Of a stretch of 64,000 nt of DNA, positions 147-15,837 are shown in pieces. The notes under the pieces are model-generated. The model saw only the letters and a list, made by a program, of their open reading frames with translations, was not told the origin of the DNA and made no database searches. Location of the stretch: positions 105,329 to 169,328 of IMG/VR virus record IMGVR_UViG_3300031857_000018. One strand, given 5' to 3'. The position numbers were made by a program, and so were the translations under genes. Numbering within the stretch: position 1 is the first letter of the stretch; the number at the start of each line of letters is the position of its first letter. Source of the DNA: a virus.

Positions 147-175
147 AAGATAAGCAAAATAATGTTCGGTGTCAA
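147..175 (-). promoter_or_regulatory. class-I (early) promoter TTGACA-N17-TATCTT(TA)
   Basis: Minus strand TTGACA, exact 17-nt spacer, TATCTT; the same layout recurs before most early genes. Confidence 0.75.
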
Positions 176-187
176 CCTTTTTGCAAA

Positions 188-376
188 CTATTTTTCAGGA
201 ATCTCATCTGAGTCATACATCTCGAATTCTCCCGGACCACCTTCTTCGACAAATGATTCCTGGAACCCGTGCCCGTTTTGCACCAATGCCAATGCTTCCT
301 CTTCGGTCTCAGCAAAGATCTCATAATACTGGATTACCGTTGTTTTGATGCGCTCTTCGAATCTAAATACTTTCAT
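188..376 (-). CDS. small acidic hypothetical protein (EIFAETEEEA motif)
   Basis: ORF track 188..424; the ATG at 376 (MKVFRFEE) is the more likely start. Confidence 0.65.
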   Translation of the reverse strand: MKVFRFEERIKTTVIQYYEIFAETEEEALALVQNGHGFQESFVEEGGPGEFEMYDSDEIPEK

Positions 377-451
377 TGGTTTATTTTTTAAAGTCCTGAT
401 TATAAATGTTGCTGATGCTAACAATCAGCGCTAAAACTAAAACTATTCCTA

Positions 452-616
452 CTACCTCCATGACTCGTCGTTTGGTGGCCAAAATGATATTTGCCACCAC
501 CCACCTGCGATTCGAGTAAGCGGTCCTGCTGTGTACCCACCCGATGGGTATTTGTTCATTTCGCGGGTAAGATCCCGGAACAACTCGGCTCTGTCATTTG
601 ATTGTAATACTATCAT
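452..616 (-). CDS. small hypothetical protein (54 aa, MIVLQSNDRAELF...)
   Basis: Read by hand; ATG behind an AATAAGAGAC leader; fills the gap between neighbouring genes. Confidence 0.55.
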   Translation of the reverse strand: MIVLQSNDRAELFRDLTREMNKYPSGGYTAGPLTRIAGGWWQISFWPPNDESWR

Positions 617-628
617 TGTCTCTTATTT

Positions 629-877
629 TTAGTTTATTACCTCAGCCCAACTGCGTGTGAATCCACCCTCAATCTCATTGTATGACTTGTTTAAAGCCGT
701 TACCAATGCTGTGATGCTTTTCGGCTTCCGATTGATTTTATGATTCCAACTGTTGCCACATTCCAGGGTGTATCCAAACACATTGCCTACTAGGTACTCA
801 ACAGTACCCTCATAAATCGTTTCCCGGGATCCTGACATCCCTGACTTCGTAATCTTAACTTTAAATGATTTTGCCAT
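629..877 (-). CDS. early hypothetical protein
   Basis: ORF with AAAGAGAGAAAT leader and its own promoter. Confidence 0.75.
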   Translation of the reverse strand: MAKSFKVKITKSGMSGSRETIYEGTVEYLVGNVFGYTLECGNSWNHKINRKPKSITALVTALNKSYNEIEGGFTRSWAEVIN

Positions 878-937
878 ATTTCTCTCTTTTTAATTTTATT
901 AAAGATAAGCATTTTTAGATTAGGATCCTAATCTTTT

Positions 938-1147
938 TTAAACTTTTTTTACAATTCCTGCTGCTAAAAGTGCCTGGATAAGCTCCTCATTCGGCACAAA
1001 GCCATTCGGCATAAATTGATCCAGGTAAGTGTCGGTTACTGGTGCCTCCGCATCCAATTCCTCATTAAACTCGGCTTCCAGGATCCCTTCCAGGAACTGC
1101 GCTAGCTCTGCGGCTAGGGTAATGTCAATCTTAAATTCTCTTTCCAT
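938..1147 (-). CDS. early acidic hypothetical protein
   Basis: ORF with its own class-I promoter and AGAGAGAA leader. Confidence 0.75.
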   Translation of the reverse strand: MEREFKIDITLAAELAQFLEGILEAEFNEELDAEAPVTDTYLDQFMPNGFVPNEELIQALLAAGIVKKV

Positions 1148-1168
1148 TTCTCTCTTTTAATTTATATA

Positions 1169-1197
1169 AAGATAAGCAAAATAACCATGCGTGTCAA
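1169..1197 (-). promoter_or_regulatory. class-I promoter TTGACA-N17-TATCTT
   Basis: Minus strand ttgaca-cgcatggttattttgct-tatctt. Confidence 0.75.
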
Positions 1198-1201
1198 CCG
1201 T

Positions 1202-1411
1202 TTAGGCAACTTTTTTCAAAAAATATTTCAACTCATATTGAGCTGAGATCGGATCCTCATCATATGCTCCTCCGGCCCACTCGGCTACAAATGCACGAAA
1301 CCCATTGGAATTCTTTGTGTTGATGTCAGATGCTTTAGCTGCTGCTAATTCTTCCGCGGAAAAAGTAACCCATGTACTCAATTCCAAAAACATGTCATTC
1401 AATGTTGTCAT
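1202..1411 (-). CDS. early hypothetical protein
   Basis: ORF with its own promoter and GAGAGA leader. Confidence 0.75.
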   Translation of the reverse strand: MTTLNDMFLELSTWVTFSAEELAAAKASDINTKNSNGFRAFVAEWAGGAYDEDPISAQYELKYFLKKVA

Positions 1412-1462
1412 ATATCTCTCTTTTTAATGATACTTAAATATAAGAATAATTCTGATAGGATC

Positions 1463-1657
1463 CTAATTTTTAGGCAACTTTTTTAATAAAGTTCTTCGCT
1501 TTGCTTTTAGCTTGCGGATCTCTAAACGGCGCAGGTATGGTCCGTGGTTATAGGTGCTTCCTGCCCAAGCCATCGTCCAAACCGTGTTGTCGCGCTGAAG
1601 GCATTCAATGTGATGATCGATGCGGTCTATTGCATCCTGGATCTCTTTTGGTGTCAT
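1463..1657 (-). CDS. early basic hypothetical protein
   Basis: ORF with its own promoter and AATAAGAGAT leader. Confidence 0.7.
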   Translation of the reverse strand: MTPKEIQDAIDRIDHHIECLQRDNTVWTMAWAGSTYNHGPYLRRLEIRKLKAKRRTLLKKLPKN

Positions 1658-1738
1658 ATCTCTTATTTTTTATAATACTTAAAGATAAGCAAAATAACCA
1701 TGCGAGTCAAGCATTTTGCAAGAAAAGTTTAAACTTTT

Positions 1739-2044
1739 TTAATAATCATTTTCCAACAAAAATGCCTTGACGGATCCGGATTTATTTGCAATTAAATTTT
1801 CCATTTCTGCAACACTGCCGCGGAAATAAAATATTCTCGACTTCAAGCCCGGCACTCGGATTTCAATGCGCTGATATAATTTCTTCCACCACCCGCGTCT
1901 CAGCATATCCGCATATTTTTTATTTGGATCCTTTGATGTGTTTCGGTCATACCCAAAAACTTCGCGCTGGATCCTGGTCTCGGATGCTAACACGGTTAGG
2001 TCCAAAAAATCAACAATCTGGTTCACTGAATTTCTTTTTGTCAT
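1739..2044 (-). CDS. early hypothetical protein
   Basis: ORF with its own promoter and leader. Confidence 0.75.
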   Translation of the reverse strand: MTKRNSVNQIVDFLDLTVLASETRIQREVFGYDRNTSKDPNKKYADMLRRGWWKKLYQRIEIRVPGLKSRIFYFRGSVAEMENLIANKSGSVKAFLLENDY

Positions 2045-2122
2045 ATATCTCTCTTTTTAATTTTATTAAAGATAAGCAAAATAATATTAGGATCCTAATC
2101 TTTTAGCAAAAAAGTTTGCTGG

Positions 2123-2521
2123 CTAATTAAAGCCAACAAACCCTTTCTCTAACACAATATCTAATTCCTCTGCAATCTCTTTGAGGCGGTAATAAGCAGC
2201 CTCCTCAATCTCATCCTCAACCGTTTCTGCCACTTGGCCAATTGAATAGCCAAATCCAAATCCATAACAGGTAACAGCTTTCTGGATGCGGATCATTTCC
2301 TCAGATGCAGCGTTCTCCCAATCCATTACTAAAAAGTCTGCTTCATAAAAGTCATCCTCATCCGTTTCTTGTGAGCGCTCACATTCATCAAATGCTGTGG
2401 CCCACAATGTGTGCACTTTAGCCTTTACTACCTCAGCCACCTCATCATTGTGGTCATACATTTCGCGGCTCCATGGTTTTGTGATTTGGATCCCGTACTC
2501 TACTTTTGCTGCTTTTTTCAT
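2123..2521 (-). CDS. early acidic hypothetical protein
   Basis: 132-aa ORF; promoter at 2545-2573. Confidence 0.8.
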   Translation of the reverse strand: MKKAAKVEYGIQITKPWSREMYDHNDEVAEVVKAKVHTLWATAFDECERSQETDEDDFYEADFLVMDWENAASEEMIRIQKAVTCYGFGFGYSIGQVAETVEDEIEEAAYYRLKEIAEELDIVLEKGFVGFN

Positions 2522-2544
2522 ATTCTCCCTTTTTAATTTATATA

Positions 2545-2573
2545 AAGATAAGGTTTATTTCCGTGCGTGTCAA
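2545..2573 (-). promoter_or_regulatory. class-I promoter TTGACA-N17-TATCTT
   Basis: Exact 17-nt spacing. Confidence 0.75.
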
Positions 2574-2601
2574 CCTTTTTGGTAACTTTGTTTGAACTTT
2601 T

Positions 2602-2844
2602 TTAATCCTCATCCTCATATTCGCCAAACTCAAATTCACATTCATCAATTACTTCTTCGAAGCACTGTGCTAGCCGATCGGCTTCAGCATCACTTAATTC
2701 TGCCTCATCCAAAAAACGATCAAACACTCCTATTAATCCTTCGCTTTCAATAAAGGAATCCATTAATTCTAATGCCGAGTCTCCAGCTACATCTGTAAAG
2801 TTGTAAATTCTCCCGTACAAGTCTTGCAATTCTTCTCTTTTCAT
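2602..2844 (-). CDS. highly acidic small early protein (possible DNA mimic)
   Basis: 80 aa, very D/E-rich; own promoter. Confidence 0.75.
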   Translation of the reverse strand: MKREELQDLYGRIYNFTDVAGDSALELMDSFIESEGLIGVFDRFLDEAELSDAEADRLAQCFEEVIDECEFEFGEYEDED

Positions 2845-2918
2845 ATTTCTCTCTTTTTTTTAATTTTAATAAAGATAAGGAAAAGATCAACGCGAGTCAA
2901 CCTTTTCCCAAAGTTTTT

Positions 2919-3047
2919 TTACATATTTTTTAAATGCTTCAAAAACAATTTTTTAACTTCGGCGTCTGACATTGCGCTAAGCGTGTCAAAACTAATTCCG
3001 CATACATAGTGCAACATGTGCTCGTGCTTTTCTCTTGGTGTTTGCAT
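2919..3047 (-). CDS. small hypothetical protein (42 aa, MQTPREKHEHML...)
   Basis: Read by hand; AATAAGAGAT leader; promoter at 3072-3100. Confidence 0.55.
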   Translation of the reverse strand: MQTPREKHEHMLHYVCGISFDTLSAMSDAEVKKLFLKHLKNM

Positions 3048-3071
3048 ATCTCTTATTTTTTAATTTATATA

Positions 3072-3100
3072 AAGATAAGAATAAAAACCATGCGTGTCAA
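3072..3100 (-). promoter_or_regulatory. class-I promoter TTGACA-N17-TATCTT
   Basis: Exact 17-nt spacing. Confidence 0.75.
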
Positions 3101-3145
3101 CCTTTTTGCAAGAAAAGTTTAAAAAAAGTTTCTGAGGAATATTAT

Positions 3146-3189
3146 AAAGAAAAAGGATCCCAGGAATAAGAGAGAGAAACCCGGGATCC
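3146..3189 (-). terminator. intrinsic terminator with a 15-nt pyrimidine-rich loop
   Basis: GGAUCCCGGG/CCUGGGAUCC stem (one G-U pair) followed by UUUUUCUUU on the minus strand. Confidence 0.75.
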
Positions 3190-3513
3190 ATTCTAACACA
3201 GAGACTAGCTCTGCCTTACCTAATGCGGCCGATCCGCCGGGAGTGTCTTTCGAGCACTAGGATCCCGGACCCTGTCAGCCTTTGAGAGATATGTTGTTGG
3301 CACGTCTGATTTGTATTGCTACATCACAACCAGATTAAGATGCTACTTGATCACGTGCCTAAGTTGATTCTAAATAAAGAGCCGGAGGTGTTAGCTTAGT
3401 GCTGTCCCTGAGGAGTGCGAAGCTTGTGGTTACCGGCTCTTAATATTATGTCGTGATCCTTGCGGTCGCCTCTCTTACGGCATTTGGTTGGATCAACCTT
3501 CCTTCTTATTTAC
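3146..3513 (-). ncRNA. putative multi-domain structured ncRNA (~370 nt)
   Basis: No ORF >=60 aa; GC-richer than the flanks; promoter at 3520-3548 and terminator; stems AAGAGCCGG/CCGGCUCUU and GGCACGU/ACGUGCC; GAAA/GCAA loops on the minus strand. Confidence 0.7.
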
Positions 3514-3519
3514 TTTTAT

Positions 3520-3548
3520 ATTATATGAAATCTAAATCTAGATTCCAA
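3520..3548 (-). promoter_or_regulatory. promoter TTGGAA-N17-TATAAT driving the ncRNA
   Basis: Exact 17-nt spacing; same class as other TTGGAW promoters in the window. Confidence 0.65.
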
Positions 3549-3601
3549 CCTCGATCTAAATATTATTCTAAAAATCAATCTAAATATACATGTATATCGG
3601 T

Positions 3602-4451
3602 CTAAAAATAGACTAGGTGGTTACTCTGTATAAGTACAGAACCGAACTAAAACCCGTCTAAAAGCACTTTTCTTCTAAAAATAGGACTAAAAATAGAACC
3701 GGATTCGATCTAAAAATAACCTAGAATTGGACTAAAAATAGCGGGGAGGAGCTGGATCCTTCTAAAAATAAGAGGTATTGGTCTAAAAATAGAACCGGTT
3801 CCTTCTAAAAATAAACGCCCCTAATACGCGTGATCGAACATATACACACTATATGCACGGATCCTTCTAAAAATAAGGTACTCCGTATAGCTAGTGATCT
3901 GAACGATCGATCTAAAAATAGCGGGGAGGAGAAGCGGATATCGATCTAAAAATAGCCTATTCGTCCTCAGTCTCTTGCACATCAACTTCCATGTCCCCAT
4001 GGGACTGTTCTAATTCCAATTCGCCCGAGCTAAGCTGTTCCCAGGCTATATCCTCAGCCGCTTCTTCCGACTCTGCCTCAATCTCAGTCTCTGCATACGC
4101 ATATGAAACGCTCGACACTCTAATTATATACTTTGCCATATTCTAATTATATACTCTAAATATAAGAATAATAATTCATATATCCTAGCATTTTGTTCTA
4201 AAAATAACACGATATTGGTCTAAAAATAAACCGGAAAAGGTTGGATATTCGAATAACCTTTTTACGCACTTCTAACGAGGTCTGCGTCGTTACTGGTAAC
4301 TGTATATGCCTGGTGCCGCGATATAGAGCCTATGCCCCCCGTACTTGTTGTATTGGGAGGGAGATATATATAACCATCTTCCTTTCTGGATACTAGACAC
4401 CATTTCGTCTAAAAATAAACGGGTGCGTCTGCGTATTTTAATCTAAAAATA
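3602..4451. repeat. array of 15 direct CTAAAAATA repeats, roughly helically phased
   Basis: Copies start at 3602, 3675, 3687, 3710, 3732, 3762, 3783, 3805, 3867, 3912, 3946, 4198, 4220, 4409, 4443. Confidence 0.9.
3957..4139 (-). CDS. small acidic protein (EIEAESEEAA motif) inside the repeat array
   Basis: 60-aa ORF with its own promoter; motif resembles 188..376. Confidence 0.7.
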   Translation of the reverse strand: MAKYIIRVSSVSYAYAETEIEAESEEAAEDIAWEQLSSGELELEQSHGDMEVDVQETEDE

Positions 4452-4517
4452 ACAAGGGGATGCTGAGGAAGCTGTAGTGCTAGACACTGGGCTCACACTC
4501 TGACAGGCTACTACTAA

Positions 4518-4760
4518 TTACTGCATATAGCTTGTGATCACTTCTCCTACCATGTATGCTGCTACTCCTATCATGCCTATCACGCATATAGCTATATAGC
4601 CTAAGAATCCTGCTAACATGTACAGTTCCCAGCTAGTTGGTTCACGTCGCGTGTCTGGATCTATTAAGGGCATCATTACTCTGCCTACCAGGTACGTGAT
4701 GCTTAATATTAAAGCTATCGTTGTTATTCCTAGTATTGTCTTCATTATTATCATTTGCAT
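4518..4760 (-). CDS. small two-TM membrane protein
   Basis: Two hydrophobic segments. Confidence 0.6.
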   Translation of the reverse strand: MQMIIMKTILGITTIALILSITYLVGRVMMPLIDPDTRREPTSWELYMLAGFLGYIAICVIGMIGVAAYMVGEVITSYMQ

Positions 4761-4828
4761 TATTTTTCGTTAGAAGCTTATCCGTAACCGTACTGCTTTA
4801 CTAATTAGTTTGACAACCGGTTATCATT

Positions 4829-5917
4829 TTATTCATAGTTCCTGATTGCCGTTACCTTCGGGAAGCGTGGCTTTCCATCCGGTGTGATTTGAAAATACTT
4901 AACCGTTGCTTGCTGACCAACCAACGTGTCTCGCTCTGCCCACAATTCTTTGAGATACTCCCAACCGCCATTAACCGATGCTGTGAAGCGATCTCCGATG
5001 GCTGTTTCAAATACTAAGGCACCTACCATTCCTGACAGGTTGCCGTTGCCTTCTTCATATCCGACAATAGTATACTCTTCGTCTGTGAATGATTTGTGTT
5101 TCATCAGTGACTTGGATCTTTTGTTTTCATAAGGTGCATCTAACCGTACCATTTGTCCTTCATATCCTGCAGACATATACTCATTGTATAATTCCATTAA
5201 CTCAGTTTCAGATTCAACAAAGTCTGTAAACACAACCACACAACACGCCGGCAATGACATTTTATTCAATGCTCCGTTCCTAACGGAAAATGGTGTATGG
5301 TGTGATGGTAGATCATATACATGATATTGGATAACCGCGGCGCTGTCAATAAGATCCTGAGCCGTTGGTTTTGTCTTTTTAACTAGGGACACAATGGCAT
5401 TAAAATCATTTGCATACTTATCCGCATACAACTCTCCGTCTAGGATCAACTCCGGATCGGCTTCAAACAATGGCTTTAGGCCTTCGAAGATGTGTGGTGC
5501 TGAAATGATAGGTTTACCTGCTCTGGTCCACATACCATCGGCACGAACAATGCAACGAATGCCATCCAGCTTAGGTTGTGAATACACAGGGTATTGTACT
5601 TTGTCTGCGAAGTCTTCCCATTTGTGGGCAAGCATTGGCTTGAACATTGTGCCGCTATCTACTGCTGCAGCATCGGCAAAGTAGCCACGCTCGGTGCGCT
5701 TCTTCCATTCTGCTTTGGCTTCTGTTAAGGCTTGTTCCTCCGGTGAGGACTCATTCACTTTGCCAATGTTCTTGGCTTGGCAGAAGGTCCATTCGGTTGT
5801 GGTGATTGCTCCGTCAACATATCCGGAGTGAGTGCGGTAAGCATCGCCCATTACTTCGATGGTGTGCTCGAGTAATTTACCTGTGGTTGCTCTTTTGTAC
5901 AAGGTCTGTAATTTCAT
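4829..5917 (-). CDS. ATP-dependent DNA ligase
   Basis: KPMLA, QPKLDGIR adenylation motif, LDGELY, EGQMVR, C-terminal PRFP. Confidence 0.95.
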   Translation of the reverse strand: MKLQTLYKRATTGKLLEHTIEVMGDAYRTHSGYVDGAITTTEWTFCQAKNIGKVNESSPEEQALTEAKAEWKKRTERGYFADAAAVDSGTMFKPMLAHKWEDFADKVQYPVYSQPKLDGIRCIVRADGMWTRAGKPIISAPHIFEGLKPLFEADPELILDGELYADKYANDFNAIVSLVKKTKPTAQDLIDSAAVIQYHVYDLPSHHTPFSVRNGALNKMSLPACCVVVFTDFVESETELMELYNEYMSAGYEGQMVRLDAPYENKRSKSLMKHKSFTDEEYTIVGYEEGNGNLSGMVGALVFETAIGDRFTASVNGGWEYLKELWAERDTLVGQQATVKYFQITPDGKPRFPKVTAIRNYE

Positions 5918-5980
5918 GTCTCTTATTTTTATACTTTAAATATAAGAATTATTTTTCATATATCCTAGTATTATTCTAAT

Positions 5981-6634
5981 TTAAATCCACATAGCATGTT
6001 CTGTATATAACCGTAGTTGATGTTGATTAATGTATGGAGCTAATACGTGTTGCGATGTCGGCGTAAGCCTAAAAGTCCATGTTCTCCATACACGTTCATA
6101 ATGAAAATGAATATCAACAGGAATGTGGGTTCGTTGTGGTTTATATTCTAATTCAACCGGATAGTATGTATCAGGTGTTGCATTACTAGGAAACAAAGTA
6201 AACCATCGATACGTGCACGGAACTCCTGCAGTAATACCCATCAAACCTTTTGATATCTTCAAGCAAATTAATCGTTTCTGATCGAACGATTCCATTGGTA
6301 TATCAATATTCCTATCCGCAATATTTAATCGACCATGTTTTTCAAACTGCGTAACATCTAATACCATTGAATCTCGCGCCGGCTTGGATACACTTAAAAA
6401 ATGTGAAATGATTCGATGGTTTGGTAATATGTCATCGAATAAAATCTGTTGCACCTTAGGGTACGTCGACGTTTGCATCGATTGTTCAACCTTTGAATAC
6501 AGATCCGGATAGAATGCAGAAATAAACCGTTCAGCACCCTCGAACACAACTGGTTCTAACATCTCAATTTCTTTATGCTTTGCATCAAATGTCGCCGGAT
6601 CATATACCGGTACTCTGAATTTCATTGAACTCAT
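5981..6634 (-). CDS. hypothetical protein
   Basis: 217-aa ORF, tightly packed with neighbours. Confidence 0.7.
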   Translation of the reverse strand: MSSMKFRVPVYDPATFDAKHKEIEMLEPVVFEGAERFISAFYPDLYSKVEQSMQTSTYPKVQQILFDDILPNHRIISHFLSVSKPARDSMVLDVTQFEKHGRLNIADRNIDIPMESFDQKRLICLKISKGLMGITAGVPCTYRWFTLFPSNATPDTYYPVELEYKPQRTHIPVDIHFHYERVWRTWTFRLTPTSQHVLAPYINQHQLRLYTEHAMWI

Positions 6635-7768: not shown

Positions 7769-7798
7769 ATTTTTATTTTATTATATGAAATTATTAGT

Positions 7799-14794: not shown

Positions 14795-14873
14795 GTTTTC
14801 CTTGTTTAATTGTTTAACTTAATTAATAATAAGATACTTAATTCTAATTTCCAAATGTTTTTTAAACTTTTTG

Positions 14874-14947
14874 CACGCCTGGATGGATTCGAACCACCAA
14901 CACTCGGATTTGGAATCCGATGCTCTACCAATTGGAGCTACAGACGC
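14874..14947 (-). tRNA. tRNA-Trp(CCA)
   Basis: Cloverleaf; TCGGA-TTCCAAA-TCCGA anticodon arm; GGTTCGAATCC T-arm. Confidence 0.95.
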
Positions 14948-14953
14948 ATTTTG

Positions 14954-15091
14954 TAGTCAGGACAGGATTCGAACCTGTGTCTTTTGTTTCGGCCATGCGA
15001 GCTCATCTGCATGCTTAGGCTTTTTGTCTTCTCGGCTCCGGAACCTTACGACTGTAGCGTCACCTGATTGGCTACCAATTGCCACCTGACT
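14954..15091 (-). ncRNA. tRNA-like RNA (acceptor stem and T-arm with an expanded interior, 138 nt)
   Basis: AGUCAGG/CCUGACU acceptor stem; ACAGG-UUCGAAU-CCUGU T-arm; no canonical anticodon arm. Confidence 0.7.
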
Positions 15092-15102
15092 AACCGTTAA
15101 AA

Positions 15103-15309
15103 TTAATACTCTCGGCCCTCGAACAACTTAATCAATCGGTAATGCCATTCTGCAGGAAAATCTGCGAGTCTGGAACTACTCTTTGCTTGTTGATGTGCCT
15201 CTTTTCTTGTCGTCGCCTCTACTATACGGTAGGGCGCTTGGTATCCATTTCTGTGACACCATTCCACTCTCCAAAGTGGATACTGTGCTTGCGCTTTCAT
15301 AATGATCAA
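15103..15309 (-). CDS. small hypothetical protein within the tRNA cluster
   Basis: ORF with a VEATTRKEA motif. Confidence 0.55.
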   Translation of the reverse strand: MIIMKAQAQYPLWRVEWCHRNGYQAPYRIVEATTRKEAHQQAKSSSRLADFPAEWHYRLIKLFEGREY

Positions 15310-15362
15310 TGATCATTGTCAGCCATAAGAATTGAGCATGTTACCCTTGTTTATTAATTTAG

Positions 15363-15445
15363 TACTCGGAGCGGGACTTGAACCCGCACGACCAATTGGC
15401 CAACAGATTTTAAGTCTGTCGTGTCTACCATTCCACCACCCAAGC
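15363..15445 (-). tRNA. tRNA-Leu(TAA)
   Basis: ACAGA-CTTAAAA-TCTGT anticodon arm; long variable arm. Confidence 0.93.
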
Positions 15446-15517
15446 AAGTGCCTGTCTTTCCAGGCTGTACAACAAGGATATTCTTTGCGCATTAAGGACT
15501 CTCTTGTGCTTCCTTTG

Positions 15518-15591
15518 TACTCCTAGCAGGACTCGAACCTGCAACGCCTAGATCCTAAATCTAGTGTGTCTACCAATTCCACCATAGAAGC
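15518..15591 (-). tRNA. tRNA-Leu(TAG) with a short variable loop
   Basis: CTAGA-TTTAGGA-TCTAG anticodon arm; Leu-type D-loop; 74 nt. Confidence 0.9.
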
Positions 15592-15765
15592 TTGAGCGTA
15601 GTGGGACTGCAGATCCCTGAGGCTCCTACGCAAGTTGTTCCTCTTTATGCCGGCGCCGCTCCCTGCACGGGACTTGTACTTTGTCCTATTAAGCGTTTAT
15701 GCAAAAGACACATCCTGGTACGCCGACCTGGGTAACCCAAATCCAATGCGTGATGTGTACTTTAG

Positions 15766-15837
15766 TAGTCCCACGGAGAATCGAACTCCGATTTCTAGGA
15801 TGAAAACCTAACGTCCTAACCGTTAGACGATGGGACC
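15766..15837 (-). tRNA. tRNA-Glu(TTC)
   Basis: TAGG-TTTTCAT-CCTA anticodon arm; GGTCCCA/TGGGACT acceptor stem. Confidence 0.93.

Follow-up and report, generated by a model that had tools for sequence, protein, structure and literature searches.

The last 64 kilobases (kb) of the 169-kb phage record IMGVR_UViG_3300031857_000018 from IMG/VR (hereafter the window, whose positions serve as coordinates unless a genome position is named) carry a predicted non-coding RNA gene of approximately 370 nucleotides (nt) on the minus strand at 3144-3513. The fold of this RNA, its homologues in related phages and the complementarity of two CU-rich segments (seeds) to the translation starts of the phage early genes suggest a new, phage-specific family of structured non-coding RNAs that probably serve as class-wide antisense repressors of early genes, a reading which, taken as a whole, we place at about even chances. 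The family is undescribed in Rfam 15 or in the literature searched. As judged from the sequence, the best-supported mechanism is that of a trans-acting antisense repressor, whose two seeds probably cover early-class mRNAs from -15 to +3. The sequence features listed in an earlier model-made reading of this DNA (the original prediction) were all located on the minus strand, shifted by 1-2 nt from the stated positions, and what had been described there as an RNA with separate folded modules proved to be a genuine conserved structured non-coding RNA gene of modular build.

The promoter of the RNA gene (3520..3548, minus strand) consisted, as originally proposed, of TTGGAA at 3548-3543 and TATAAT at 3525-3520 separated by a 17-nt spacer, and transcription was predicted to start near G3513. 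It was the top sigma-70-type match within 2800-4600 (10 of 12 positions), and TTGG-N19-TATWAT was kept upstream of the RNA in all 14 loci checked. The predicted transcript (3144..3513, minus strand) had a minimum free energy of -115.5 kcal/mol (z = -4.1 against shuffles). The absence of a long open reading frame (ORF) from these 370 nt was confirmed on the RNA strand between 3513 and 3192, and no conserved ORF was found in the window lineage; the sole conserved AUG in the RNA opens 2-17 codons, the length varying among relatives, and only a 2-codon ORF in the window. At the 3' end, a GC-rich stem of 10-11 base pairs (bp) with a 15-nt loop is followed by UUUUUCUUU, and the U-rich tract at 3144..3154 (minus strand) probably mediates intrinsic termination. 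This hairpin was not called by a consensus terminator scanner because the scanner allows loops of 3-8 nt. For the window, with its hairpin, 15-nt loop (3179-3165) and U-run, the terminator claimed for the RNA 3' end is probable, and a hairpin with a U-run lies at this end in most members. The CU-loop hairpin is not the terminator in every relative: L100 has no U-run after its CU-loop hairpin, and L058, L097, L108, L111 and L114 carry a separate terminator hairpin 3' of it. With a predicted promoter, a hairpin and U-run and no conserved ORF, the locus has the appearance of the independent transcription unit expected of a trans-acting base-pairing regulatory RNA.

The fold was evaluated by covariation in an alignment of 10 members with 49 pairs in 8 helices, in which 95% of the cells were paired. 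Compensatory changes on both sides were found in 16 of the 49 pairs, compared with 6.1 ± 1.7 in shuffled alignments (none of 500 reached the observed value) and 2-6 when the partners were slid. A natural variant of approximately 89% identity, recovered from sequencing runs, contained AU-to-GC double changes in the inner helix 3333-3326 / 3314-3306, and its G-U pairs were compatible with the minus strand only. All of the following elements are on the minus strand. The RNA opens with a conserved purine-rich segment, UAAGAAGGAAGG (3497..3508), whose counterpart in some relatives serves as the leader to a small peptide ORF. The first hairpin (3454..3495) is composed of P1 (3495-3490 / 3459-3454) and P1a (3482-3480 / 3469-3467), and double compensatory changes were present at two of its pairs in L065/L066. 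The P2/P2a hairpin (3377..3441) has a variable tip and an A/C-rich internal loop, in which UAACCACA (3432-3425) lies opposite UAACACCU (3393-3386); compensatory changes occurred at five pairs, including covariation of the predicted 9-bp stem (3441-3433 / 3385-3377), and the internal-loop strands were identical in all ten aligned members. The 3' strand of this loop (3386-3393) reads ACACCUCC and is half paired in P2; its letters are those of the anti-Shine-Dalgarno end of 16S rRNA (ribosomal RNA), possibly by chance, and the anti-Shine-Dalgarno oligonucleotide ACCUCCUUUCU is given in PMC7797042. The 7-bp stem of the original prediction (3359-3353 / 3305-3299) is real and, together with the inner helix mentioned above, builds a hairpin at 3299..3359, which is, though, a lineage-specific insert restricted to the window and L052, and is replaced or absent in the other members.

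Downstream of the insert, the branched module with a GAAA loop was found as predicted, at 3278-3229. This junction domain (3229..3278) is formed by P3 (3278-3275 / 3232-3229), P4 (3270-3263 / 3242-3236) and P5 (3257-3252 / 3247-3243), and is the block most widely kept in distant relatives. P5, with compensatory changes at three pairs, is capped by a GAAA tetraloop within CGAAAG (3252-3247), and the relatives have GAAA, GCAA or a similar GNRA tetraloop at this place. The unpaired conserved block UUAGGUAAGGCA (3212..3223) comes next and is followed by a hairpin of variable length at approximately 3211-3195. The presence of a long insert at this hairpin in L071, and of 79 nt in place of 32 nt (3190-3221) in an environmental variant from an RNA library, marks it as an insertion hot spot. 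The terminal hairpin P6 (3153..3191; stem 3191-3181 / 3163-3153) covaried at 5 pairs. The architecture of the family is modular: the conserved blocks are the purine-rich 5' segment, P1, the A/C-loop hairpin, the GNRA junction, the UUAGGUAAGGCA block and the CU-loop hairpin; variable hairpins are inserted at three sites, and there are one or two seed hairpins. Nothing suggested that the modules are processed into several small RNAs, the second possibility raised by the original prediction.

Two single-stranded CU-rich segments are the candidate targeting sequences. Seed 1 is the 15-nt loop of P6 (UUUCUCUCUCUUAUU, 3179-3165, minus strand), with a predicted probability of being unpaired, P(unpaired), of 0.82, and it was the second-best pairing site in the window RNA. 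Its core, UUCUCUCUUAU, was constant in 26 hairpins with 22 distinct stems (19 lineages), and many distant relatives have two CU-loop hairpins in tandem. A constant loop on differing stems, in a hairpin that is not always a terminator, indicates that selection acts on the loop in its own right, rather than the loop being a side effect of termination. Seed 2 is the linker ACAUAUCUCUCAAA (3281..3294, minus strand; mean P(unpaired) 0.71), the complement of GAGAGAUAUG, i.e., of leader plus start codon. The original prediction had singled out its core, CAUAUCUCUC at 3293-3284, as antisense to exactly these elements, and the linker was indeed the best pairing site of the window RNA for early start regions (-11.2 kcal/mol versus an RNA-wide -3.7 ± 2.4 kcal/mol). 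This seed was kept in 10 of 12 close members, always with CAU beside CUCUC, and its variants CAUAUAUCUCUC and CAUGUCUCUC correspond to other natural leader subtypes. When the ten aligned homologues were put through an unbiased sliding scan against early start regions, the linker and the loop ranked as the top two sites in all eight homologues having both, each at approximately -11 kcal/mol and about three standard deviations below the RNA mean; where the linker is missing (L052 and L058), the loop ranked first. The predicted P(unpaired) of the seeds was approximately 0.7-0.9 in most members versus approximately 0.43 RNA-wide, with values of 0.36-0.38 for the linker in L071 and L073. Conserved single-stranded seeds of predicted accessibility, as looked for in regulatory RNAs of this class, were thus found.

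The sequences complementary to the seeds are the AG-rich leaders AAGAGAGA or AAUAAGAGA, located 4-6 nt before AUG. They are concentrated in the early cluster (genome 99.2-111.3 kb), which is made up of small, separately promoted genes, approximately 20 of which carry the AG-rich leader and AUG; the leader was also found at a few other genes with a TTATMTTTA promoter. The leader motifs of the original prediction were located at all eight starts it had named. The candidate targets, all on the minus strand, included the leader AAUAAGAGAU and start of the early gene 2919-3047 (3045..3066), AAGAGAGAAAU and the start of the early gene 2602-2844 (2842..2864; loop -11.5, linker -10.6 kcal/mol), AAGAGAGAUAU and the start of the early gene 1739-2044 (2042..2064; loop -11.1, linker -12.6 kcal/mol), and AAUAAGAGAC and the start of the DNA ligase gene 4829-5917 (5915..5937). 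Loop duplexes averaged -9.9 kcal/mol with 22 early start regions and -3.1 kcal/mol with 198 other genes (Mann-Whitney p = 5e-11). When the seeds were shuffled with their composition preserved, the observed pairing was reached by the loop in 2 of 500 cases and by the linker in none of 500, which speaks against the chance matching of AG-rich sequence that the original prediction had named as a concern. The complementarity was beyond chance and specific to the target set, as is expected of the regulatory-RNA class, and close relatives retained the same AG-rich leaders. A depletion of anti-leader words in sense transcripts gave no signal because on that strand every C3T4 7-mer is rare. The 5' end of the RNA was also considered as an extended Shine-Dalgarno sequence for the Flavobacterium 16S tail and was rejected, as the pairing reached only -9.8 kcal/mol and was equalled at 188 genome sites.

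Homologues of the RNA were recovered in more than 20 lineages, all of them phage contigs from freshwater relatives, by way of the adjacent 80-amino-acid (80-aa) early protein, two conserved sequence patterns and the early sigma-factor gene. The phages carrying the RNA form a clade of large freshwater phages. A pattern scan of 185,579 prokaryote genomes with the two most conserved RNA blocks returned 0 matches and hence no sign of a host homologue; a blastn search against GenBank phages gave no match to the RNA, and two exact patterns derived from the window alone had no matches. As this region is mosaic, the neighbourhood of the ligase gene was no route to the RNA and was rejected: none of the 50 IMG/VR and metagenome loci carried it, not even those with a ligase of 92-98% identity. 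The covariance-model search that had been proposed for known RNA families and ribozymes produced no family match: against Rfam 15 (4227 models, including RNAIII, C4, GOLLD, ROOL, transfer-messenger RNA (tmRNA), RNase P, 6S and ribozymes), the RNA stayed below the gathering thresholds, and only four transfer RNAs (tRNAs) passed them in the whole window. The top score of a permissive scan of 3000-4100 was 25.5 bits, with the match on the wrong strand and the threshold at 60. The RNAs of seven relatives gave nothing in Rfam at E <= 0.5, and ARAGORN found no tmRNA.

In the mechanism proposed for the antisense repressor, the RNA would be made from the TTGGAW-N17-TATAAT promoter class, unlike the early class TTG-N20-TTATCTTTA, and the phage sigma-70-family protein from the early cluster may read this promoter. 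As the RNA accumulates, both seeds would pair with early messenger RNAs (mRNAs) at about -15 to +3. Such pairing would block 30S binding and perhaps expose the early mRNAs to decay, with the consequence that synthesis of the early class would be shut down together. The conserved core would give stability or bind a helper protein.

Several results weigh against this antisense mechanism. The original prediction had proposed that loops should track the leader motifs in relatives, and this was not what we observed in the L102/L104 and L110 clades. Most leaders were of GGGA type in L102/L104 and of AGAGCC type in L110; the loops remained CUCUCUU-like and paired weakly with their own leaders (-5 to -6.6 kcal/mol). 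Cognate and non-cognate seed-leader energies did not differ across lineages, and the co-change of seed and target that is looked for in regulatory RNAs of this class was not found among the relatives. A comparison of UUAUU and UUUAC loop ends with the share of AUAAGAG leaders showed only a weak trend. The seed loop is more conserved than the leaders that are its proposed targets, which makes a conserved protein or host partner possible. Low-complexity AG/CU sequence inflates apparent matches, and in relatives some genes behind promoters of the TTGGAW-N17-TATAAT type also bear AAUAAGAG-type leaders. Approximately two-thirds of the conserved sequence (the A/C-rich loop, the GNRA junction and the UUAGGUAAGGCA block) is dispensable for antisense action, and a single RNA gene would need to titrate approximately 20 strongly promoted mRNAs. 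Finally, two RNA libraries hold contigs across the locus that overrun both predicted ends (to 3129, 3588 and 3970), so that DNA carry-over or read-through is possible. The uneven cover in the RNA run X16 (pieces at 3129-3588, none at 3614-6000) was considered as a sign of expression and rejected, since the run had been selected with this very stretch and contigs cannot rank depth.

The conservation of the loops, and their failure to follow the leader changes in L102/L104/L110, would be accommodated by a protein-binding scaffold or sponge, in which the CU loops bind a conserved phage or host RNA-binding protein, e.g., the pyrimidine-preferring ribosomal protein bS1, and the complementarity to leaders is secondary or coincidental. 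One loop motif on one or two hairpins with unrelated stems corresponds to the CsrB/RsmZ type of design, and the size and conservation of the core, with its GNRA tetraloop and invariant internal loop, are typical of ribonucleoproteins. On the other hand, the linker contains a correctly spaced complement of the start codon and has variants that match leader subtypes, which would not be expected of a protein-binding site; pairing is very strongly specific to the early class, no partner protein was identified and no conserved RNA-binding gene was linked to the locus. We regard this explanation as possible but rather unlikely.

The same large core could be given a function that includes, rather than replaces, the pairing. 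The RNA would then be a guide plus effector: the CU seeds would bring a conserved, tertiary-structured core, with its A/C-rich internal loop and GNRA junction, to every early mRNA start, and the core, bound by a nuclease or a ribosomal component or itself active, would silence and destroy the whole host-takeover class at the early-to-middle switch, in hosts whose ribosomes disregard Shine-Dalgarno sequences; in sister lineages, the transcript would in addition encode a small membrane peptide. We advance this elaboration only tentatively and consider it unlikely as it stands.

The peptide itself led to a different explanation, i.e., that the transcript is dual-function or cis-regulatory and that its ancestral role was the control of its own 5' membrane-peptide ORF by a fold-back of the 3' loops of the type I toxin-antitoxin or hok-like kind, the window copy being an ORF-less derivative. 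In L094, L095, L098, L099, L108 and L111, the homologous RNA starts with a hydrophobic ORF of 27-29 aa with a single transmembrane segment behind a AAUAAGAAG-type leader (L094:7049-7132, L095:743-832, L098:2747-2836, L099:7634-7720, L108:8417-8500 and L111:6904-6987). The window RNA retains the same 5' leader, with which the loop could form 7 bp. However, the window RNA and its close relatives are without such an ORF, having an AUG and 2-17 variable codons, and their seeds are nevertheless invariant. Pairing with the own leader reached -4 to -8.8 kcal/mol and was weaker than with early start regions (-10 to -15 kcal/mol), and where the 5' leader had changed to AUUAAGA, AAUAAGC or AUUAGAAAG, the loop showed no compensating change. 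On these grounds, pairing of the loop with the 5' end of the RNA was rejected, the locus did not show the hallmarks of a type I toxin-antitoxin or hok-like system, and we find the cis-regulatory explanation distinctly improbable. The peptide-encoding relatives, which are more distant ones, have a homologous promoter and 5' leader, then the ORF and then the structured domain with CU-loop hairpins, and look dual-function.

It is scarcely credible that the RNA and the upstream TATTTTTAGA repeat array together form a DNA-level element serving replication initiation (as primer or R-loop RNA) or packaging and not acting in trans: the array is always immediately followed by the RNA gene and repeats overlap the promoter in many members, but the predicted transcription heads away from the array and ends at a hairpin and U-run in most close members, the selection on RNA pairing includes G-U pairs, the seeds and the tetraloop have no role in such a model, and the promoter spacer of L094-L099 is without the repeat motif. 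The array comprises at least 15 copies of CTAAAAATA in the same orientation (TATTTTTAGA on the RNA strand) at 3560-4451. Equivalent arrays were located at L058:980-1350, L086:7485-7600, L088:6665-6760 and L093:5480-5700, and in every relative the array adjoins the RNA gene; in many of them the copies reach into the -35 region and spacer of the RNA promoter. The CTAAAAATA array may be where a regulator binds, or may constitute an origin-like element.

The antisense repressor proposed here has partial parallels among known systems. RNAIII of S. aureus is a large multi-hairpin RNA in which pyrimidine-rich loops, that of the terminator included, base-pair with a set of mRNAs at their purine-rich ribosome-binding sites. 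It is a dual-function RNA that encodes the 26-aa delta-haemolysin, and RsaE/RoxS are related small RNAs with C-rich loops. The phage RNA is likewise a multi-hairpin molecule with pyrimidine-rich loops, and its relatives encode a hydrophobic 5' peptide of 27-29 aa. The two do not share sequence or structure homology, as judged by the lack of an Rfam match; RNAIII is chromosomal and controlled by quorum sensing, whereas the RNA described here is phage-encoded, its seed CUCUCUU faces AGAGAG leaders, the proposed targets are the early class of the phage itself, and the GNRA junction and invariant internal loop are present in the phage RNA only. The c4 antisense RNA of phages P1/P7, of approximately 77 nt, is processed from the operon of its single target, icd/ant, and controls immunity. 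It is similar in being phage-encoded and in having two short exposed sequences complementary to the region of a ribosome-binding site, which in c4 jointly stop translation. It differs from the RNA of this study, which is 300-390 nt long, separately promoted and has approximately 20 unlinked proposed targets, and which had no match in Rfam. CsrB/RsmZ also repeat one short motif in the loops of hairpins with unrelated stems; the phage RNA has one or two loop copies and a linker, compared with up to approximately 20 copies in CsrB, and its motif is CU-rich, not GGA. Like GOLLD and ROOL, it is phage-borne, several hundred nt long and equipped with tertiary hallmarks (GNRA tetraloop, invariant internal loops) in a core of unassigned function, but it matches neither Rfam model, is smaller and has an explicit candidate targeting sequence.

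Proteins are known that shut off early phage genes as a class, examples being the RegB endoribonuclease and the RegA repressor of T4. T4 RegB cuts GGAG in early Shine-Dalgarno sites (PMC3014915). The likeness to RegB and RegA, i.e., the inactivation of many early mRNAs via a shared motif in the initiation region, is a functional analogy only, as these are proteins with other recognition chemistry and no homology. If the proposed mechanism is true, a virus would time its programme in a new way, by an RNA that pairs with a leader common to approximately 20 separately promoted genes, and this would take place in uncultured but abundant phages that infect freshwater Bacteroidota, several of these phages having a gene for ribosomal protein bS21. 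Bacteroidota hosts start translation without Shine-Dalgarno pairing (PMC7797042), and this RNA would therefore offer a means of probing the function of the AG-rich leader. Whatever its mechanism, the family has a well-supported fold, a modular architecture and dual-function relatives; it is fit for an Rfam entry and suited to experiments in Flavobacterium model systems.

Additional observations were made on the promoters and leaders. The TTGGAW-N17-TATAAT class, often in the form TTTCATATAAT, is common to the RNA gene and a few non-early protein genes, with protein-gene sites at window positions 7790, 30385 and 37115 and genome positions 3647 and 92357. Some of these genes begin just 5-14 nt past the -10 box, and their mRNAs would consequently be nearly leaderless. 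The genes behind this promoter are without PHROG function and did not reveal its temporal class. The early class, TTG-N20-TTATMTTTA with an AG-rich leader, was located in the window at 153-3078, 4165, 5945, 16068, 24850, 26153 and 59889. Early promoters have two upstream versions, GGTTGACAC and TTAGGATCCTAA, the latter of which explains part of the regional excess of GGATCC. In the L102, L104 and L106 clade, most early leaders have shifted from AAGAGAGA to (A/U)UAGGGAAUG or AAAAAGGGA(G/A)AUG, and the CU loops of the RNA are shortened and partly mutated, making this clade a natural test case for co-evolution of seed and target. The early cluster contains a gene for a sigma-70-family protein of 246 aa (genome 103649-104389, window -1679 to -939), which is kept in the relatives, where its counterparts carry the region 2 and region 4 Pfam domains.

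The minus strand carries nearly all genes of the window. The TTG-N20-TAnnTTTA promoters and a CHU_C type IX secretion domain in one of the proteins point to a Bacteroidota host for the window phage. Ribosomal protein bS21 is encoded by this phage and by both nearly complete relatives; the phage gene lies within the structural region (genome 47408-47545) and is kept in the relatives. Freshwater bS21 phages have been described (PMC9723584), and the window phage and its relatives agree with that description; the paper makes no mention of any such non-coding RNA. Four tRNA genes (Trp-CCA, Leu-UAA, Leu-UAG and Glu-UUC) form a cluster on the minus strand at 14873-15837. The window also contains cargo unusual in a phage at 11511-13493, 21063-22691, 38137-39750 and 56089-57579, listed as a CHU_C type IX secretion-signal protein, a GroEL-type chaperonin, a PAS-domain histidine kinase and a GT4 glycosyltransferase.

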